NCBI GenBank assembly: GCA_029856125.1
Contig: JAHQWJ010000106.1
Coordinates: 1-25,468 of the forward strand
Direction: 5' to 3'
Length of the DNA: 25,468 bases
DNA from: Promethearchaeia archaeon
Lineage (GTDB): Archaea > Asgardarchaeota > Lokiarchaeia > Sigyniarchaeales > SOKP01
Below, one piece after another: positions 1,321 to 13,289 of the stretch. Every line of letters begins with the position of its first letter. Positions within the stretch are counted from its first letter, which is position 1. The notes beneath the pieces were generated by a model. It saw nothing but the letters and a program-made list of their open reading frames with translations. It was not told the origin of the DNA and made no database searches. The position numbers were made by a program, and so were the translations under genes.

Positions 1321-2622
1321 TTAATGAGAAGCGCACGATATGCAAGGATCAAATGCTCTTATCATTATTTGAACTTTTTCTTTAACAGAATCAATATCTT
1401 CTTTTTCATATAGCTTTTTGGCATATTCAGTGATCATTTTGTTAAGAATAGGCAAATTTATTTCGGTTGCAATGAAAAGCTTCACTTGATCAACGATTTT
1501 AGCTTTATTTAAATGATAATGGTGCATTAATATGCCTCTTGGTGCTTCGATAACCCCTATTCCATTTGATTTTTTTATTGAGTTTAGTTGTTTAAGTTTT
1601 GTTTTACTTTTTAGTAAAGTAGTATCTAATATTTCAACACTTTTTTGAATTTCGTAATAAATTTCAATTAATTGTAAAAAGTTTAAAAATAATAAATTGC
1701 TTTTCCATTTTTTTCCAAAATTGCTTAAATATTCGGATATTTTATCTATCCCATAATTTTGAGCTAACTTATAGCGTGCTATTGGTCCTGTTAAAATTTT
1801 CTTTTTCGAATTTGACTTAAACACAATCCCATAAAGATTAGGGTCTTTATCAAAATATTTTGAATAATTTTTCACTTGAAAATCGTCGTAAGTTGTATCA
1901 TTTTGTTCAATTCTGAGGTCTCCTTCATACCTATCAAATCCCATATTATTCTTTAAGCCGAAATATATTGAATTAGAAAGATTAAATTCTGTAGGAGGAT
2001 CAAAAGCAGAAAATAGATCTATAAAATTTTCAATTATAGTTTCTATGTAATAAATTCCCTTTTTTAGATATTTCTCTATAGAAATTAAACTCTTTCCAGT
2101 CGGATTAAATATTAGTCCTCCAGGAATCGGAGTAATTGGATGTAGCGCCCTTCCTCCTATTAGCTTATTTATTTCTGAACCAATTTTTATTAAATTAAAA
2201 ACATTTGTCGTTAAATGAGGATTGTAATTAATTAAATTATAGGGATCTTTAATTAAAGGATTAATTTCAAATATTCTCAACAAATCTGGAAAGGACTGGA
2301 AAAAATAATGCATAATGTGCGATTTTATTAATTCTCCGGATAACAAAAGCCTTCTAAGCAAAATGGATTGTTGAGATGGTTCTATTCCGTATAAATTTTC
2401 TATTGCTTTGCAACTTGCAATTGTTTGAGATGCGTGGCATAGTCCACAAATTCTAGATACTATTTTTGGAATATCTAATAACTTTTTGCCTACTAAAATA
2501 TTTTCAAATCCTCTAAATACTGAAAAATTCAATTCAGTTTGATAAATTTCATCGTTTTTCAAATAAATGATTAAGTTTCCACATCCTTCAACCCTTGTGC
2601 ATGCTTCTACAACTTTATCCAT
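1321..2622 (-). CDS. mvhA: Group 3 (MvhA-like) [NiFe]-hydrogenase large subunit, atypical
   Basis: TRVEG, L1 RICGLC, EAPRG..HHY and L2 RAFDPCISCASH are present. The ATG at 2622 overlaps the upstream stop (TGATG) and follows a GGAGG RBS, so it is preferred to the TTG at 2625. Confidence 0.92.
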   Translation of the reverse strand: MDKVVEACTRVEGCGNLIIYLKNDEIYQTELNFSVFRGFENILVGKKLLDIPKIVSRICGLCHASQTIASCKAIENLYGIEPSQQSILLRRLLLSGELIKSHIMHYFFQSFPDLLRIFEINPLIKDPYNLINYNPHLTTNVFNLIKIGSEINKLIGGRALHPITPIPGGLIFNPTGKSLISIEKYLKKGIYYIETIIENFIDLFSAFDPPTEFNLSNSIYFGLKNNMGFDRYEGDLRIEQNDTTYDDFQVKNYSKYFDKDPNLYGIVFKSNSKKKILTGPIARYKLAQNYGIDKISEYLSNFGKKWKSNLLFLNFLQLIEIYYEIQKSVEILDTTLLKSKTKLKQLNSIKKSNGIGVIEAPRGILMHHYHLNKAKIVDQVKLFIATEINLPILNKMITEYAKKLYEKEDIDSVKEKVQIMIRAFDPCISCASH

Positions 2623-3386
2623 CAATCTTTCCCTCCTGCAAATAATTTTGAGAACCTATAATATATCCCTCTATAGTTTCTTAAATTTTTAGAAAGGTTA
2701 AAAAGGCTTAAGAAATTGATTAGATTCGATGTAAACCCCTTTGAGACCGGCCCTAAACATCCTTCACAGGGTAATCCTTGATGTATACAGAGATGATCGC
2801 AGCCGTCTCGAGTAATGGGCCCTAAACATAAAATCCCATTGTTCAAAAAACACGATACATTTTCTCCAGGAAACCGAATTTCATCGTTTCTTGGAACAAT
2901 CTTATCTATTGTTAATGGTAAATCTAATTTTGCGAGGTTGTTTAAAGGGCAAGTTGAACACATATTTTTTAAGCTTAGCTTGATTTCCTTGTTCTCTACT
3001 AACCTCAATAAACAATTTCCTAGAAGTATGGACGGAGGAGGACATCCTGGTATAATCCCATCAACGTCTACAAACTTTGAAATAGGATGCGAATCTTTAT
3101 TATTTGAGAGACTAAGAATCCCCCCAAATGCTGAGCATGTACCTAATGCATATAATTTTTTTGCATTTTTTCGTATTTCTTGAAGATATTCGATTTGATT
3201 TTTTTCGGATACGCAACCCTCTACTAGCGCTATATCGCATTCTTTGATTTCTATATTGTCAGATATAAATGGAAAATATTCGATTTTCGTTCTCTCAAGA
3301 AATTGTGGAAATACATCTAACGACATTAATGCCGATATACATCCAGTACAAGACGTTAAAGAGGTAATTAAAAATTTAAGCTTCAC
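2622..3386 (-). CDS. mvhG: Group 3 [NiFe]-hydrogenase small subunit (MvhG-like)
   Basis: SCTGC, VEGCV, GTCSAFGG, PGCPP, CSTCP and CFL..GILCLGPITRDGC...C....LPCEGCLGP motifs. GTG start preceded by AGGAGGAG; overlaps the upstream gene by 11 nt. Confidence 0.92.
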   Translation of the reverse strand: MKLKFLITSLTSCTGCISALMSLDVFPQFLERTKIEYFPFISDNIEIKECDIALVEGCVSEKNQIEYLQEIRKNAKKLYALGTCSAFGGILSLSNNKDSHPISKFVDVDGIIPGCPPPSILLGNCLLRLVENKEIKLSLKNMCSTCPLNNLAKLDLPLTIDKIVPRNDEIRFPGENVSCFLNNGILCLGPITRDGCDHLCIHQGLPCEGCLGPVSKGFTSNLINFLSLFNLSKNLRNYRGIYYRFSKLFAGGKD

Positions 3387-5922
3387 TTTTAATCTCCTCC
3401 TTTAATAAATTATAGAATTTATTAGAGATTTCAGCAAATTTCTGTCCTTCTACTCCATTTAAACCCATCACTATTATCCGTCTGCTTAACTTTGGCCCTA
3501 TAATCTTTTTTAAAAGCCCAACTCTTTTTTTTAATTTTTCAATCCCATCAATATATCTACAAGAATCCTTGCTACAGCCAATAATCATAACTCCATCAAA
3601 CCCCATTTCAAAAGATTTAACAATGAATTCAGTATCAATACGTCCAGTACAAGGAACAGATATTATAAAAACATTAGGTTGATATAACAATTTTTTTAAT
3701 CCTGCATTGTCAGCAGCAGCGTAACCGCACGATTGGCAACAAAAAGCGATGATTTTTGGTTTTTTATTGAATTTTGAGAAAATTTCGATCGTTTTTAAAA
3801 TCTTTTCTGACGTATTTATATTCATTTCGATGGCATTAGTAGGACAAACACTAGCACACATACCACAAGCTTTACATTTAAACTTATCAACAGTAATTTT
3901 TTCGGAGATTATGCTTATTGCATTGTAAGGACAAGAATTAACGCAGAGGTAACACAATCCACATTTGTCTTCATTAATCTCTATTCCAGTATATTCTGTT
4001 ATTAAATAATCATTTGAAAGAAGTGATATTACTTTCAAAGCTATGTTATTGGTGGTTGCAATAGTTGAGTGATAATTTAATGGCCCAAATATTGTTCCAA
4101 CACCATAAATACCAGAGGCTAAAGTTTCTTCACTCATAAAACCATAATCATTTAAAGTGAAGTCCATAATCTTTCTTAAAGATTTCAGATCCTTATTTGG
4201 AATTAATTTAATATTTAAAACAATCAAATCACTCTGAAACTCAATAGAATCAGCATTTATGTAATTAATATTCTCTCTTGTCTCGATTAATACTTTATTA
4301 GCGTAAAGAAATCTAGGGTGAGTAGATTTTAGTATTATCTTGTCTTTTTCTTTCAGTTTACCTAAATCGTAAAAAACATTAACTTCACAATTAGGGTTCT
4401 TTACTTTAATAACATCTATATACTTTAGGGTCAAAATATCTGAATATTCACATAGATAGTTTGAAGATCCTACTTCTTGAATAATTGATAATGTTTTCAC
4501 TGGTTTCCCATCAGACAATCTTACGATCTTTCCATCAGTTAAGCCATCTGAACATAAAATTCGTTCAAACTCTGCCGACGTTATAATATTATTCCGTGGA
4601 TCATAATTATATTCTTTTAAATTTGAATAAAGATCTGAACCGATAGCTATAACTTTTGCGCCTACTTTAATTCTTAATTCTTTGGGTTTTTCTATTAAAT
4701 TTATTGCATTATTTGCACAAGCACGTTCACACACTCCACATTCAAGACAATTTCTAATATCTTCATCTTCAATTAATGGTACATAAGGATAACAGTAGTG
4801 AAAAGGAAAGTAAATTATTTTTCTGTTTGTTAATCCAAATTCATACATATTAACTTTTTCTCGAGCACACACATCAATGCATTGCTTACAACCTGTACAT
4901 TTAGTCTCATCAATATAGCGAGGTTTTTTAATTAAACCTATAGTAAAATTGCCAACTTCTCCAGAGACACTTATTATTTCCGTGTTTGTCAAGATCTCGA
5001 TTTTTTTTTCTTTCACAATTTCCCCAATTAATTCAGAGATGAAACAAGCAGAGCAATCTCCCATATTAGAAACTTTTTGCCATCTTGCTACTTTTCCGCC
5101 TAAAGTAGGAGATTTTTCAATCAAATAACACTTGATACCTGCCCTTGATAAGTTTAACGCTATGTTCATACCCGCAATCCCACCTCCAACAATAGCGCAA
5201 CTTTTTTCAACTTCAACTCTTTTTATTTTAATTGGTTTTTGAAGACTTACTCTACTAACTGAGGCTTCTATAAGTAATTGCGCTTTTTTCAGCGTTAAAA
5301 GACTATCAACATGCTTTTTACTTGAATAATGTACCCAACAACATTGTTCTCTTATATTTGCAATCTCAATATTTGCATGATCAATTATATCTTGAAAAAG
5401 ACGTTCAAATATATGTTGATGTGTTTTAGGAGAACAAGCAGCGATAACAATTTTATTTACGAAGTTATCAGTAATCCAATTATTAATTTTATCTTGGTTT
5501 TTTTCTTGACATAAATTATCAAGAATTTTTACTGAAACAACATTATTTATTTTACTTGTATAGTTTTCTAAGGATTTAATGTTAAGTACATTTGAGATTT
5601 CTGTATTACAATTACAGATGATAACACCTATTCTGTTTATTTCGCTCCCTTTTGATTTTAAATATTCTATTTCCTCTCCAGATAAAATTCTTTTGCTTAA
5701 TCCTAATATCCTTAAAACTCTTTTACCGTCATCATTTAAATAATACGATTTTTTGTCTTTACTTACTAAATTATTAAGCTTTTTCAAATGAAAATTTAAT
5801 TGTCCTGTTTGTTCTATACCTAACTTCACCATTAAATCGGTATAGGGGATAAAACCCTCTTCTTCGAGAAGGTATAAGAGTTTTCTTCTTATCGGATGTG
5901 CTAAAATTGAATAAATATTCAT
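3376..5922 (-). CDS. hdrA: Fusion protein: ArsR-like winged HTH + HdrA-like flavoprotein + 2[4Fe-4S] ferredoxin + MvhD
   Basis: N-terminus LAHPIRRKLLYLL...GQLNFHLKKL..LV...YYL (ArsR/wHTH). HdrA motifs RIGVIICNC, AACSPKTH, NIREQCCWVH, VGGGIAG, DCSAC, EFER. Four CxxCxxCxxxC motifs. MvhD motifs AFCCQSCGYAAAD, VPCTGRID, GCSKDSCRY. Confidence 0.9.
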   Translation of the reverse strand: MNIYSILAHPIRRKLLYLLEEEGFIPYTDLMVKLGIEQTGQLNFHLKKLNNLVSKDKKSYYLNDDGKRVLRILGLSKRILSGEEIEYLKSKGSEINRIGVIICNCNTEISNVLNIKSLENYTSKINNVVSVKILDNLCQEKNQDKINNWITDNFVNKIVIAACSPKTHQHIFERLFQDIIDHANIEIANIREQCCWVHYSSKKHVDSLLTLKKAQLLIEASVSRVSLQKPIKIKRVEVEKSCAIVGGGIAGMNIALNLSRAGIKCYLIEKSPTLGGKVARWQKVSNMGDCSACFISELIGEIVKEKKIEILTNTEIISVSGEVGNFTIGLIKKPRYIDETKCTGCKQCIDVCAREKVNMYEFGLTNRKIIYFPFHYCYPYVPLIEDEDIRNCLECGVCERACANNAINLIEKPKELRIKVGAKVIAIGSDLYSNLKEYNYDPRNNIITSAEFERILCSDGLTDGKIVRLSDGKPVKTLSIIQEVGSSNYLCEYSDILTLKYIDVIKVKNPNCEVNVFYDLGKLKEKDKIILKSTHPRFLYANKVLIETRENINYINADSIEFQSDLIVLNIKLIPNKDLKSLRKIMDFTLNDYGFMSEETLASGIYGVGTIFGPLNYHSTIATTNNIALKVISLLSNDYLITEYTGIEINEDKCGLCYLCVNSCPYNAISIISEKITVDKFKCKACGMCASVCPTNAIEMNINTSEKILKTIEIFSKFNKKPKIIAFCCQSCGYAAADNAGLKKLLYQPNVFIISVPCTGRIDTEFIVKSFEMGFDGVMIIGCSKDSCRYIDGIEKLKKRVGLLKKIIGPKLSRRIIVMGLNGVEGQKFAEISNKFYNLLKEEIKSEA

Positions 5923-6244
5923 TTTTGAGCTTTCCCTTTAAATTTTTAGTCGAAATTTATTTTGTTAAAACCTTTTTTTTGACAAATTATTTTTTCTTCA
6001 TGACAATATATGTTGCAAAACTATATATGTGTGATCAAAAGTGATCATATAATCAACGAATTCCATCAATAAAAATGACGATTTCCAATTAACTAAAAAA
6101 ATTGTTTTAAAAACAATTTTGACAATATTCCTTATCAAGAAGCTAAAAAATTTTCTTGTCAAATTCTTTATATTTTAAGCTTATGACAATTCAATTAGGT
6201 AAACAACTTTTTAATAAGTTGAAATAAAAGAGGTGTATTATTAA
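5923..6244. promoter_or_regulatory. Divergent promoter region with repeated TGACAA boxes, palindromes, TATA-like elements and an RBS
   Basis: TGACAA at 5980, 6001, 6120 and 6184, and reversed (TTGTCA) at 6156. GTGATCA at 6031 and 6041. Inverted repeat at 6098-6120. TATA-like at 6022-6027 and 6167-6172. GAGGTG RBS at 6230-6235. Confidence 0.6.
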
Positions 6245-6862
6245 ATGGATGTTTTGGATTTGAAGCCAGTAAAAAATAAAAAAATAATAGCGTATATGTC
6301 CTCAAAAGAAAATGGCAGGTATTTTCAAAATAATAACACATCAAGATTAACCGAATTTCTTAAAAAGAAAGATGTTAATTTTGTTACCGTAGATTTTCAA
6401 GTAGTTATGAAGGAGTTTAAGAAAACACCTTTTGCACAAACATTAGATAAACTTGGAATACCATATATTCAAGTAGATATTCCAGATTATGCAATGGGTT
6501 ATCTTTACGAAGAGATTGTTGAAAAACAAGAACTTCTAAATGAATTATTTGAAGAATACGACAATATGAGTGATAAAGAATCTTTCAAAGGACAAAGTCT
6601 AAAAAACTGGATCGACATGTTAAGTGGAGAAATTCAAGAAAAAGAGATCTTTTTAAGCTTAAAGCTAAGACCACAGTGGATCGTAAAAAAAATGTTAGAT
6701 TTTGCAAATCATTTTGAAAATGAAGTTGTTTCTTTTGTACATTTTGTTCAAGAGGATATTTGCGAGGATATTTGCCCTCAAGTCGTTGCAAATTTAAGAG
6801 AATTGGGAGTAAAAGTAATTTCTTATACCAAAAAACATACAATTCAAAATATTATATTTTAA
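6245..6862 (+). CDS. Hypothetical protein, paralogue of the next gene
   Basis: 205-aa ORF with a GAGGTG RBS; aligns by eye with 6886..7617. Confidence 0.8.
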   Translation: MDVLDLKPVKNKKIIAYMSSKENGRYFQNNNTSRLTEFLKKKDVNFVTVDFQVVMKEFKKTPFAQTLDKLGIPYIQVDIPDYAMGYLYEEIVEKQELLNELFEEYDNMSDKESFKGQSLKNWIDMLSGEIQEKEIFLSLKLRPQWIVKKMLDFANHFENEVVSFVHFVQEDICEDICPQVVANLRELGVKVISYTKKHTIQNIIF

Positions 6863-6885
6863 TTACAAAAAAGGAGTGAGAAAAT

Positions 6886-7617
6886 ATGCCAGAAGTATTA
6901 GAATTAAAGCCATTAAAAGATAAGCATCTAAAGCTTATCATGATAGAAAGCGAGTTTCCAATAGATTGGTGGTTTGAAGTTCCTAAAGAAGAAAAGGATG
7001 ATTTGCTATGGTCTTTACATCTTATTAGCAAAGAATATCTTCAACTTATCGATAATTTAATAGACAAATATTCACCTGATTTTGCTTTGGAAGAAAAACC
7101 AAATTTTTGGAATGACCCGCTAAACCCTAACGATCCTCTAAAAACCTTATTCAAAAAGAAAGGAATTCGATTTAAACATGCTGATATCTCTGAAAATGCG
7201 GAATTTTATCTTTCTGCCGCATTGGATGAACACAGAGATATGCTACAAACACTTGAAGAGCGAATCGAAGAGATAATTAGAGAAAGAGGTGTTGTTCCTT
7301 CCGAGGATGAACTTTTCCAACAATTAATTTTATGGAAGGAATATCTCAAACAAGATTATAATTCACAAGAAGATGAAATTAGATATAAAGTTAGAGAGGC
7401 TTGGATGATGATGAATATTTTAAACCTTGCTAAGGAAATTGAGGGGAAAAAATTAAAAGGGTTATTTATTTGCGATTTAAGGCACTTTGAAGGTCTTGAT
7501 AAGTTAGCAAACGATTTAGGCATCGATACAGAACAGATTAAAATCAAAAGAACTTTTAAAACCGCAGAAATCGAAAAAGAGTATGAAGAAGAGGTAGAAG
7601 TTGAGATATCTAAATAA
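6886..7617 (+). CDS. Hypothetical protein, possibly TraB/EreA/ChaN-like alpha/beta fold with helical insertion
   Basis: 243-aa ORF with an AGGAGTGA RBS. PDFALEE, REAWMMMNI and LFICDLRHFEGL echo the 'PD.v.vE / R...M...I / vvG..H..Gl' motifs of that superfamily. Confidence 0.7.
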   Translation: MPEVLELKPLKDKHLKLIMIESEFPIDWWFEVPKEEKDDLLWSLHLISKEYLQLIDNLIDKYSPDFALEEKPNFWNDPLNPNDPLKTLFKKKGIRFKHADISENAEFYLSAALDEHRDMLQTLEERIEEIIRERGVVPSEDELFQQLILWKEYLKQDYNSQEDEIRYKVREAWMMMNILNLAKEIEGKKLKGLFICDLRHFEGLDKLANDLGIDTEQIKIKRTFKTAEIEKEYEEEVEVEISK

Positions 7618-7625
7618 TTTTTTTT
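7618..7625 (+). terminator. Possible archaeal oligo-T terminator
   Basis: T8 run immediately after the stop codon; weak evidence in AT-rich DNA. Confidence 0.3.
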
Positions 7626-7668
7626 GTTATAATTTCTTTAAATTTTATGATTTAATTAATGATGTGAG

Positions 7669-8682
7669 ATGAGAAAAATTACTCAAAATAATGAAATTGG
7701 AAATAAAATTGAAAGTATTCTTGGGAAAAAATCAATAATAGAATTGACGCCAATTAAAATAAAGAAAAAAGATTCGTCAGATAAGATTTGTTATTTTTTT
7801 GACACGGATGATAACGCTTCTCCGTTTGATATTAACATGGCTTACGACGCTGGTTTTGATATTGTTGTGCCAATAAGTAGAATGACGGCGGATCAAGTCC
7901 CTAAACTTGTCCAAGATGCTATATTTTCACGTAAACCTAAAGCACCTACAACGTTTTTTATTGGGGGATCCGATGTAAAGGAAGGGGAAAAAATTGCTAA
8001 GAAAGTTATTGAATCCTTAGTACCTCCATTTGAATGTCCTGTAATAATAGATCCAAGGGGTTCTCATACTACTGCTTCTGCAGTTGTAGCTAAGACATTA
8101 TACGACGCTAAAAATATACATAAAATTAGTGATTTAAAAGGAGAAAAAGTCGTAATCTATGGGGCAGGTCCAGTTGCCAGAATTGCTGCCATATTAGCCG
8201 CAAAAGAAGGGTTGAACATATTTTTAGTTGAAACTTGGGATAAATCTAACGAAGCTTTTATAAAAAATCTTGCTAAAGAAATAACCGAAGAAGCTGGGGA
8301 GGATGCAACCGAAGTTAAAGGAATTTTTGCGCCTGAGATAGAACAAAGATATAATGTTGCTAAAGATGCATTTATTATCTGGTCTCTAGCTGCTGCTGGT
8401 GTAGAAGTTTTACCAAGCGATCTAATGGAAAGGCTAGAAGGTAAGAAAATTGTCGTAGATATCAATTTAGTTCCCCCTTATGGAATTGAAGGAATAAGAC
8501 CAAAACACGATAATAAAGAAATTTATCCTGGAATTTTTGGAATTGGAGCATTAGCATTAGGTCGTTTAAAAGCAAATTCGGAGGGAGAAATATTAAAAGA
8601 AGCAACAAAAACTAAAGGTACAAAGGTATTTGATTACAAATATGCGTTCGAAGTTGCTAAAAATTTGTTATCTAAGATGTAA
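7669..8682 (+). CDS. NAD(P)-dependent methylene-H4MPT/H4F dehydrogenase, MtdA/MtdB family, with N-terminal extension
   Basis: FDTDDNASPFDINMAYDAGFD, VQDAIFSR, FIGGSD, VPPFE..VIIDPRGSHTTASAVVA, GAGPVA, AAAGVEVL, DINLVPPYGIEGI and GIGALALGRLK are characteristic of the MtdA/B/C family. Confidence 0.88.
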   Translation: MRKITQNNEIGNKIESILGKKSIIELTPIKIKKKDSSDKICYFFDTDDNASPFDINMAYDAGFDIVVPISRMTADQVPKLVQDAIFSRKPKAPTTFFIGGSDVKEGEKIAKKVIESLVPPFECPVIIDPRGSHTTASAVVAKTLYDAKNIHKISDLKGEKVVIYGAGPVARIAAILAAKEGLNIFLVETWDKSNEAFIKNLAKEITEEAGEDATEVKGIFAPEIEQRYNVAKDAFIIWSLAAAGVEVLPSDLMERLEGKKIVVDINLVPPYGIEGIRPKHDNKEIYPGIFGIGALALGRLKANSEGEILKEATKTKGTKVFDYKYAFEVAKNLLSKM

Positions 8683-12377: not shown

Positions 12378-13289
12378 ATGGAATTAAATGGAGTGGAGAT
12401 AGAAGATACTTTTTGCGAAGCCTTCGGAGCGGTTTTTACTAGAATTCTAGTTACTGCAATAAATGAGAAATGGGTAAAAATTGCCAGTCAAATCGCAACG
12501 GGCTACGGAACATCAACAATCCACTGTGATGCAGAAGCAGGAGTTGATGTGTATGTCCCAGCGGACAAAACTCCCGATAATCGTCCAGGAGTTGCCTTGA
12601 TGTTTTTTAAAACTAAAAAAGATAAGATGGATCAAGTGTTGCTAAACAGAGTAGGGCAATGTATATTAACTTGCCCAACTACAGCTTGTTTTGACGCTTT
12701 GAATACCTCTCTCGTTCCAGAAAAAGATTTTGAAATCAAGACTGGGTATAAATTAAAATTTTTTGGAGATAAATTTGAGGAAAAAATTGAGGGATCTTAT
12801 CCATTCGAAGCATGGAAAATTCCTGTTATGGATGGAGAATTTGAAGTACAGAGCGTTTTCAAAGTCGGAAAAGGAATCGCTGGAGGTAATTTCTTAATAT
12901 ATGGTGAAACACAGAAAGCCACATTAGAGGCTTCTGAAAAATCTATTGAAGCTATTAAAGATTTAGAGAATATCATAACCCCTTTTCCAGGTGGAATAGC
13001 GCGTTCAGGTTCTAAAGTTGGTTCAGCCTATAGTTTCTTAAACGCATCAACAAATGATCCCTTATGCCCAACTCTCCGACAGAAAATCGACAACTCCCTA
13101 TTAGGAGAAAAAGATAATTGTGTATACGAAATAATACTTGATGGTGCATCTGAGGAAATCATCAAAGAGGCAATGAAATTAGGTATACGCGCTGCCGTTC
13201 AAGTTCCGGGGATTAATAAAATTAGTGCGGGCAATTACGGAGGGAAACTAGGAAAGTTTCACTATCGACTTCACGATGTTTTAGCTTAA
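12378..13289 (+). CDS. ftr: Formylmethanofuran:tetrahydromethanopterin formyltransferase
   Basis: NGVEIEDTFCEAF, ATGYGTSTIHCDAEAG, TPDNRPG, RVGQCILTCPTTA, GIAGGNF, PFPGGIARSGSKVGS, ISAGNYGGKLG. Confidence 0.96.
   Translation: MELNGVEIEDTFCEAFGAVFTRILVTAINEKWVKIASQIATGYGTSTIHCDAEAGVDVYVPADKTPDNRPGVALMFFKTKKDKMDQVLLNRVGQCILTCPTTACFDALNTSLVPEKDFEIKTGYKLKFFGDKFEEKIEGSYPFEAWKIPVMDGEFEVQSVFKVGKGIAGGNFLIYGETQKATLEASEKSIEAIKDLENIITPFPGGIARSGSKVGSAYSFLNASTNDPLCPTLRQKIDNSLLGEKDNCVYEIILDGASEEIIKEAMKLGIRAAVQVPGINKISAGNYGGKLGKFHYRLHDVLA

Follow-up and report, generated by a model that had tools for sequence, protein, structure and literature searches.

Can the electron-transfer subunit of a hydrogenase act as a regulator of its own genes? 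This question is raised by contig JAHQWJ010000106.1 of a Promethearchaeia archaeon (assembly GCA_029856125.1), of which positions 1 to 25,468 were analysed; this whole stretch of 25,468 nucleotides is called the window here. On its reverse strand a single gene encodes a winged helix-turn-helix (wHTH) domain, a linker, a body resembling HdrA of heterodisulfide reductase and an MvhD domain, and it is followed by the [NiFe]-hydrogenase genes mvhG and mvhA (Table 1). A divergent partner operon encodes two Asgard-specific proteins of 205 and 243 amino acids (aa), below called u205 and u243, and an MtdA/B-like homologue of methylene-tetrahydromethanopterin (H4MPT) dehydrogenase. As in trigger enzymes, an enzyme and a DNA-binding domain are united in one polypeptide. 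We consider the protein to be a bifunctional trigger enzyme that regulates its own genes and the partner genes of one-carbon (C1) metabolism, and assign this reading a probability of about 0.55. Hydrogen metabolism is central to Asgard syntrophy and to hydrogen-based models of the origin of eukaryotes.

The fusion is not an artefact. The open reading frame (ORF) of 848 aa contains no internal stop, and Pfam and NCBIfam domains extend along it: the NCBIfam model HdrA2 aligned to residues 97-842 (E 6e-166), and PF02662 matched the MvhD domain with 114.1 bits at a cut-off of 22.3. An earlier note, made from the letters alone, had placed a wHTH at 5690-5922, i. e. residues 1-78, joined without a stop to HdrA-MvhD. 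This proved correct, as did the linker SGEEIEYLKSKGSEIN and the HdrA start RIGVIICNC given there; relative to solved HdrA, the wHTH is located N-terminally of residue 2. In 80 species-level genome loci the wHTH-HdrA junction was recovered as a single tblastn segment (query residues 1-198/200). A search with residues 1-200 returned at least 256 protein clusters, almost all of 840-855 aa with PF24038, HdrA and FlpD together, which is the domain architecture the note had asked for; their labels are Lokiarchaeota/Promethearchaeota and other Asgard names. Since the continuous frame is kept in 80 loci and more than 250 clusters, misassembly or a frameshift can be excluded. The conserved first codon is GTG, TTG, ATA or ACG in several orthologues, each preceded by a GGAGG-like ribosome-binding site; thus translation begins at the wHTH. 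Among them, translation appears to start at the non-canonical codons ATA (L028, L029, L072) and ACG (L070, L032), with a good ribosome-binding site upstream.

In agreement with the remark in the earlier note that a DNA-binding HdrA was not recognised as characterised, the full-text literature searched held no description of such a protein nor of DUF7347 (PF24038), the Pfam family of the wHTH. The sole winged helix mentioned there in the vicinity of HdrA systems belongs to BamF, where it serves as a protein-contact motif. Some partial proteins in databases already carry the automatic name 'DUF7347 domain-containing protein'.

DUF7347 matched residues 3-72 (E 1.9e-9, 38.1 bits, cut-off 27.6) and scored 43-50 bits in distant fused forms. 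The AlphaFold2 (AF2) model of the domain, computed from a 71-sequence alignment, has a predicted local distance difference test score (pLDDT) of 88.5 and consists of helices 3-7, 10-22, 27-34 and 39-48, strands 53-56 and 59-62, and helix 64-80. The recognition helix TGQLNFHLKK lies in 39-48, followed by the beta-hairpin wing (53-62) and the C-terminal helix. The best Foldseek matches in the PDB were NolR on DNA, YodB, CadC, SmtB, ArsR and HlyU (template modelling score, TM, 0.55-0.67; probability 1.0; E about 2e-3 or weaker), and the top matches also span HxlR and MarR regulators. With the orthologue profile, the ArsR-like protein 1Y0U of A. fulgidus was found at E 3.7e-4. The ArsR/SmtB model NF033788 matched with E 8.4e-7 and 28.7 bits, which is below its cut-off of 55. 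As modelled, the fold is ArsR-like, just as the earlier note had proposed, and strict family membership is given for DUF7347 only.

Across the 73 full-length orthologues conservation peaks in the wHTH, with a mean majority-residue frequency of 0.857 compared to 0.77-0.83 for the catalytic domains. No substitution occurs in T39-G-Q-L-N-F-H-L46, and with a mean net charge of +5.4 the domain is basic. Synonymous and non-synonymous codon changes were also counted in a crude way, but the counts were saturated and thus uninformative. The ArsR/SmtB repressors (NolR 4OMY on DNA, CadC 1U2W, SmtB 1R22, and 1Y0U) resemble the wHTH in fold (TM 0.57-0.67), in profile similarity and in having a palindromic site at their own promoter, for which a candidate is described below. 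Unlike them, the wHTH scores below the NCBIfam cut-off, has no metal- or thiol-sensing residues and is attached to a 750-residue redox enzyme. An inducer site of Cys, His or Asp ligands as in ArsR/SmtB factors was not found inside the domain: the alignment shows no metal motif, and Cys is absent from the first 96 aa in 72 of the 73 orthologues. Hence the wHTH has no obvious sensing site of its own.

How far the fusion reaches was followed in 301 sampled Asgard genomes (families, genomes, contigs and loci carry the letters f, G, C and L). The wHTH orthologue is present as a single copy in 74 of them, from seven families: f1 (50/68), f9 (7/76), f14 (6/19), f18 (4/5), f21 (3/6), and also f3 and f4. 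With one exception it lies in a frame of 840-900 aa that covers query residues 1-198, at identities down to 35-40%. A fused form of 825 aa is annotated in Bathyarchaeia on contigs of up to 1.07 Mb. Frames of 1160-1190 aa in f9 matching query residues 20-199 turned out to be tandem HdrA-HdrA-MvhD proteins lacking DUF7347 (L097), not a second wHTH architecture. Where the orthologue is missing, the weak wHTH matches (38-46 bits) are paralogues whose recognition helix differs, e. g. STGTIYHHL in G099.

The wHTH also occurs apart from HdrA. In G218 (L109:4501-6477, +) the orthologue, which is 86% identical to the type found in protein cluster P0126, is fused to a u243-like plus MtdA/B-like protein, 658 aa in total. 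In the five members of P0126 it is free-standing and located four bases upstream of the u243-Mtd gene, and the same arrangement is seen in G275, where the free wHTH has 90 aa (L110:7475-7747, -). The free form measures 90-93 aa overall, is annotated by one source as an ArsR family regulator, and has cACAA-N6-TTGTC upstream of its gene. As the wHTH is fused to HdrA, fused to Mtd or free, it behaves as an autonomous module within one gene set, in the manner of a transcription-factor module. In G218 the linker is followed by LKTLELEPLNEKK, which resembles an N-terminal motif common to the 205-aa, 243-aa and Mtd-like proteins of the window.

A candidate target was found in the promoters of these genes. 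In many loci ATGATCA is followed by a TATA box, some 107 nt ahead of the start codon, then by (G)A(C/T)AA-N6-TT(A/G)TC and, 21 bp further on, by TT(G/A)TCA. The strict palindrome, defined as GA(C/T)AA-N6-TT(A/G)TC (GAYAA-N6-TTRTC), was present within 300 nt upstream in 16 of 24 loci dereplicated at 80% identity. Its density there is 2.5/kb versus 0.06/kb in the remainder of these loci. The distance from the TATA start to the beginning of the palindrome is 11-12 nt in 23 of 25 cases, and in this register close relatives have NACAA-N6-TTRTC and distant ones GACAA-N6-TTGTC. As the relatives are not independent of one another, a nominal P of 1e-22 is too strong a figure. The genome to which the window belongs (3.69 Mb) contains 37 strict palindromes, of which 4 are intergenic and one is that at 6121-6136. 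There is no intergenic enrichment overall (2 fully intergenic sites, compared to 2-7 in Markov shuffles), and the palindrome is therefore a local element and not a general promoter element. In the GC-richer distant genomes GACAA-N6-TTGTC is as rare as a control pattern. Both perfect sites of the G047 genome, and two of the four in G028, are located upstream of the fusion gene. G179 and G230 each have two perfect sites, one ahead of the fusion gene and the other ahead of the Mtd-fusion gene, which in these genomes is not divergent but downstream of mvhA.

The palindrome moves with the promoter when the gene order changes. In about 20 loci without a site within 300 nt, a gene of the frhB/fdhB family is now the first of the operon, and a pair of strict palindromes is found upstream of it, at about -1300 to -1520. 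G012, G006 and G017, which have u243-Mtd and lack the wHTH orthologue, have no palindrome near u243-Mtd. A search of Rfam with positions 5850-6300 found no RNA family; thus the conserved upstream sequence is not explained by a known RNA element of the 5' untranslated region. The idea of the earlier note that the protein could bind repeats or palindromes gains support from this rare, conserved element in the operon promoters, with binding predicted from sequence.

The preferred reading builds on the fusion, the fold and its strong conservation and on the rarity, position and co-migration of the palindrome, all of which are directly supported. In this model the body would serve as the HdrA-MvhD electron-transfer flavoprotein of a group-3 [NiFe] hydrogenase (MvhG/MvhA), with the ArsR-like winged helix as its DNA-binding module. 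The earlier note had suggested that the HdrA homodimer would supply the geometry for binding; two points qualify this suggestion, namely the low-confidence, probably flexible linker of the AF2 model and the fact that ArsR-type domains usually dimerise on their own. A dimer of winged helices would bind GA(C/T)AA-N6-TT(A/G)TC immediately behind the TATA box in the promoter of its own operon; the same complex would bind sites in the promoter region of the partner C1 (H4MPT) operon, and binding would set the expression of both operons. That this wHTH binds this palindrome is inferred. Repression would be expected at the own promoter, since a site directly after TATA is the classic position of an archaeal repressor; at the partner promoter the effect could be of either sign.

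What might control binding can be approached by comparison. PutA is a flavoenzyme with an N-terminal DNA-binding domain of the ribbon-helix-helix fold, as opposed to the winged helix here. The trigger enzymes PutA (proline dehydrogenase and repressor of the put genes) and BirA (PMC6978683) likewise combine an enzyme with a DNA-binding domain in one polypeptide; here, a candidate operator lies at the fusion protein's own promoter. Different from PutA and BirA, the protein described here is an archaeal, hydrogenase-linked iron-sulfur flavoprotein, in which binding and switching are predicted only. By analogy with PutA (PMC6978683), which is controlled by reduction of its flavin adenine dinucleotide (FAD), DNA binding could plausibly respond to redox state, H2 or assembly of the attached hydrogenase complex, albeit this is the least certain part of the model. 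An HdrA-type flavoprotein with its own DNA-binding domain and a nearly genome-unique candidate operator constitutes a concrete, testable regulatory circuit whose parts, namely protein, site and a small regulon including H4MPT/C1 genes, are defined. It would extend the trigger-enzyme principle to archaeal iron-sulfur flavoenzymes.

Several points weigh against the trigger enzyme, the first of them concerning the site. The proximal site of the window itself is imperfect, reading TGCAA-N6-TTGTC on the gene strand. In G099, a congener whose genome is 99% complete, both the wHTH orthologue and its mvhG are missing, and yet the perfect GACAAAAAATTTTGTC is kept in the divergent region that separates an frhB-like gene from a canonical Sec-HdrA-u205-u243Mtd operon; the palindrome may be read there by another factor, or the wHTH gene may be unassembled. 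Furthermore, the f15 genomes G012 and G023 hold 24 and 20 strict palindromes, versus 7 and 6 of the control, without an orthologue, and may have another factor of similar specificity. Both observations also fit a winged helix that does not bind DNA at all: it could serve protein docking or complex assembly, e. g. by recruiting the Mtd-like module, while an unlinked factor reads the palindrome. Winged helices are often protein-interaction modules, and the wHTH does co-occur tightly with the u243/Mtd module (of the 301 genomes 68 have both wHTH and u243, 6 only the wHTH, four of these from f18, 15 only u243, and 212 neither). However, every one of the closest structural matches is a regulator that binds DNA, with one structure solved in complex with it, and an invariant recognition helix in a basic domain is also at odds with mere docking, as is the existence of the free form with its regulator label. 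A docking domain hopping between its supposed partners, mostly HdrA but Mtd in G218, would also be hard to rationalise. We therefore regard this explanation as very unlikely.

In G099 the operon next to the palindrome (L116:1281-6607, on G099:C120) encodes a canonical HdrA with in-frame TGA codons at CxC and DCxxC, probably read as selenocysteine, followed by u205 and the u243-Mtd fusion. A further strict palindrome of this genome, on G099:C16, is identical to the distal site of close relatives; it lies inside a 589-aa ORF and was taken as a chance occurrence.

The other points against the trigger enzyme concern the coupling of the wHTH to the flavoprotein. The wHTH has neither Cys nor metal ligands of its own, and its free and Mtd-fused forms show that it does not need HdrA. 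In the full-length AF2 model (overall pLDDT 85.9) linker residues 82-93 have a pLDDT below 50, so that nothing speaks for allosteric coupling between wHTH and flavoprotein. By AF2, the wHTH is a genuine addition to the N-terminus, attached by a flexible tether, yet the sequence of the linker is conserved. A simpler possibility is that the wHTH binds the palindrome as a tethered autoregulator, giving feedback in proportion to the amount of protein and indifferent to redox state and H2, and that the fusion only secures co-expression and stoichiometry. The lack of ligand-binding residues in the wHTH, a flexible linker and the occurrence of the same module in free form or on another protein of the regulon speak for this explanation. 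For a passive tether, however, it is unexpected that the linker is as conserved as the catalytic domains (0.83, with G82 invariant). The HdrA fusion has also been retained in seven Asgard families and in Bathyarchaeia at identities as low as 35%, which counts against this explanation as well. Feedback without sensing thus appears rather unlikely to us.

A third explanation depends on what the enzyme part can still do. The body has the HdrA fold, comprising the N-terminal cluster domain, the FAD/thioredoxin-reductase domain, the inserted ferredoxin domain and the C-terminal ferredoxin domain. It superposes on 5ODC_A with Z 44.4 and a root mean square deviation of 3.5 over 605 residues (model residues 94-717, from residue 2 of the solved chain on). 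The FAD site and the N-terminal, inserted and C-terminal ferredoxin clusters are present, with Cys ligands that are 97-100% conserved, as are the Cys of the MvhD domain (728-788). All NCBIfam HdrA models score below their cut-offs (HdrA2 553.7 vs 1100; hdrA_Methbact 396 vs 1300; HdrA 346.9 vs 1400). The four Cys of the [4Fe-4S] cluster in the thioredoxin-reductase domain are missing (4420-4490, -): at the canonical C..C..CC of HdrA the window has IIQEVGSSNYLCEYSD, whose sole Cys, C491, is found in 22% of the orthologues. These Cys are lost in the clade of the window (f1 and f21) and kept in f9, f14, f18 and the Bathyarchaeia form.

The large subunit has changed as well. By its best models and structures (ShyA, VhuA, MvhA) the hydrogenase belongs to group 3. 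The L1 motif of MvhA, RICGLCHASQ (2425-2448, -), has Gln in place of the canonical His, and the protein ends with DPCISCASH (1321-1350, -) without a C-terminal extension. This combination of CxxCxxxQ and no extension was found in 65 of 71 related loci, while f9, f14 and f21 have CxxCxxxH and an extension of 7-11 residues. A Gln in L1 together with the lack of the extension is a mark of sensory hydrogenases. Possibly, the complex of the Lokiarchaeial clade that includes the window is no longer a metabolic enzyme but a dedicated, one-component H2 or redox sensor with DNA binding as its only output. The lost cluster fits this, as it lies on the electron exit path to HdrBC according to a figure legend in PMC9012536, and so does the lack of hdrBC in the operon. 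The genome also encodes a second [NiFe] large subunit, on contig C18, adjoining CCG-domain (HdrB-like) genes. The fusion, on the other hand, is older than the sensor-like changes of this clade, because f9, f14, f18 and Bathyarchaeia keep the cluster Cys and f9, f14 and f21 keep CxxCxxxH with the extension; the wHTH thus arose on an apparently ordinary enzyme. Moreover, conservation is about 100% for the FAD motif and for the remaining cofactor ligands, which also counts against this explanation. Altogether a dedicated sensor seems quite unlikely. Stated in full, it would be a self-contained H2 sensor made of wHTH-HdrA-MvhD, MvhG and MvhA, in which H2 oxidation at the [NiFe] site reduces the iron-sulfur/flavin chain and thereby sets DNA binding by the winged helix; if true, this sensor, for which we see only a slim chance, would switch the hydrogenase operon and the H4MPT genes without a kinase or second messenger. 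The stepwise changes, i. e. first the fusion, then the loss of the HdrBC-facing cluster, then the changes in the large subunit, may record an enzyme becoming a sensor.

The closest enzymes are the electron-bifurcating hydrogenase/heterodisulfide reductase MvhAGD-HdrABC of methanogens (5ODC, 8RVU, 7BKB) and HdrA2; in principle of action, the trigger enzymes PutA and BirA come closest. With MvhAGD-HdrABC the system of the window shares the HdrA body, which superposes, the FAD motif, the N-terminal, inserted and C-terminal ferredoxin Cys, MvhD, MvhG and MvhA. It differs in the additional 96 residues of wHTH and linker, the fused MvhD, the lack of hdrBC in the operon, the missing cluster ligands of the thioredoxin-reductase domain in the clade of the window, and scores far below the NCBIfam HdrA cut-offs. 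HdrA2 of Methanosarcina (NF040770) has the same HdrA-MvhD order and is the best-scoring named model, even though its cut-off is not reached; position 1 of its profile corresponds to residue 97, so that there is no wHTH in HdrA2 as modelled.

Among H2-sensing systems the closest is that of Ralstonia eutropha, HoxBC with HoxJ/HoxA (PMC6978683), in which a [NiFe] hydrogenase is likewise linked to transcription control. The large subunit of the window is comparable in that its L1 motif ends with Gln and a C-terminal extension is lacking. In contrast to HoxBC, the hydrogenase belongs to group 3 and not to group 2b, and the DNA-binding domain resides on its own electron-transfer subunit, with no kinase or response regulator in between. 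No kinase is present among the annotated ORFs of the window, and the system is thus not of the HoxBC type (group 2b plus histidine kinase).

Table 1. Positions of the fusion gene, its domains, neighbouring genes and promoter elements in the window (gene-strand sequences where indicated).
Feature	Position	Strand	Basis
wHTH-linker-HdrA-like-MvhD fusion gene, 848 aa	3376..5922	-	ORF and translation; Pfam and NCBIfam matches; full length kept in 73 orthologues
wHTH domain, residues 1-80	5683..5922	-	PF24038 above cut-off; AF2; Foldseek; conservation
Linker, residues 81-96, SGEEIEYLKSKGSEIN	5635..5682	-	Sequence conserved; low pLDDT
HdrA-like body, residues 97-715	3778..5634	-	Alignment to 8RVU/5ODC HdrA; structural superposition; Cys census
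MvhD (FlpD) domain, residues 724-841	3400..3753	-	PF02662, E 5.1e-33; own-genome scan
mvhG-like [NiFe]-hydrogenase small subunit	2622..3386	-	PF01058, NF045875 VhuG; overlaps end of fusion gene
mvhA-like [NiFe]-hydrogenase large subunit	1321..2625	-	PF00374, ShyA/VhuA models; alignment to 7T2R/5ODC_F
Divergent partner operon: two Asgard-specific proteins (205, 243 aa) and MtdA/B-like methylene-H4MPT dehydrogenase homologue	6245..8682	+	Pfam Mpt_N; synteny
TATA-like box of the fusion-gene promoter, ACATATATAG on gene strand (TTTATATA/TTTAAATA in relatives)	6021..6030	-	Kept at about -107 from start codon
Proximal operator-like site, imperfect; gene strand TGCAAcatataTTGTC, + strand GACAAtatatgTTGCA	6002..6017	.	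Register of the palindrome in relatives
Further TTGTCA half-site, 21 bp downstream of proximal TTGTCA	5980..5985	-	TT(G/A)TCAAAA in many relatives
Two TGATCA boxes upstream of TATA box, one helical turn apart	6032..6047	.	ATGATCA about 13 nt upstream of TATA in many relatives
Distal strict palindrome GACAAtattccTTATC, side of divergent operon	6121..6136	.	Kept at -202 to -261 in relatives
TTGTCA and TGACAA half-sites flanking divergent TATA-like box	6156..6189	.	Sequence; similar everted pair in L102

The two TGATCA boxes may be a second regulatory site. The gene order wHTH-hdrA-mvhG-mvhA was unchanged in every locus examined. According to the ORF annotation, hdrBC genes are present neither in the operon nor elsewhere in the window. 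CCG-domain genes are numerous elsewhere in the genome, which also has 16 MvhD domains. Synteny of the partner operon with the fusion operon holds across families, the partner being either divergent or downstream, and its proteins are often fused into one of 560-600 aa. For the 205-aa and 243-aa proteins, searches of ESM Atlas and NCBIfam returned no function; TraB/GumN is a weak lead (0.82). Besides the Mpt_N dehydrogenase homologue (7669-8682, +), the window encodes an F420-dependent Mtd (PF01993; 11385-12233, -) and Ftr (12378-13289, +). All three genes are found within 6 kb, which places the hydrogenase operon in a neighbourhood of the H4MPT C1 pathway. In about 20 loci of the L030-L082 subset a gene of the FrhB/FdhB family (F420-binding beta subunit) precedes wHTH-hdrA in the same orientation, e. 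g. L043:4759-5850 (+). There are hints here that F420-linked chemistry is part of the same regulon.

A second enzyme with an N-terminal DUF7347 winged helix is encoded in the genome of the window (G000:C138, L002:1462-3225, +). The wHTH (residues 14-87) is followed by an ATP-cone and the anaerobic ribonucleotide reductase NrdD, with the frame running beyond the end of the locus; this protein looks like an NrdR-type regulator built into the enzyme.

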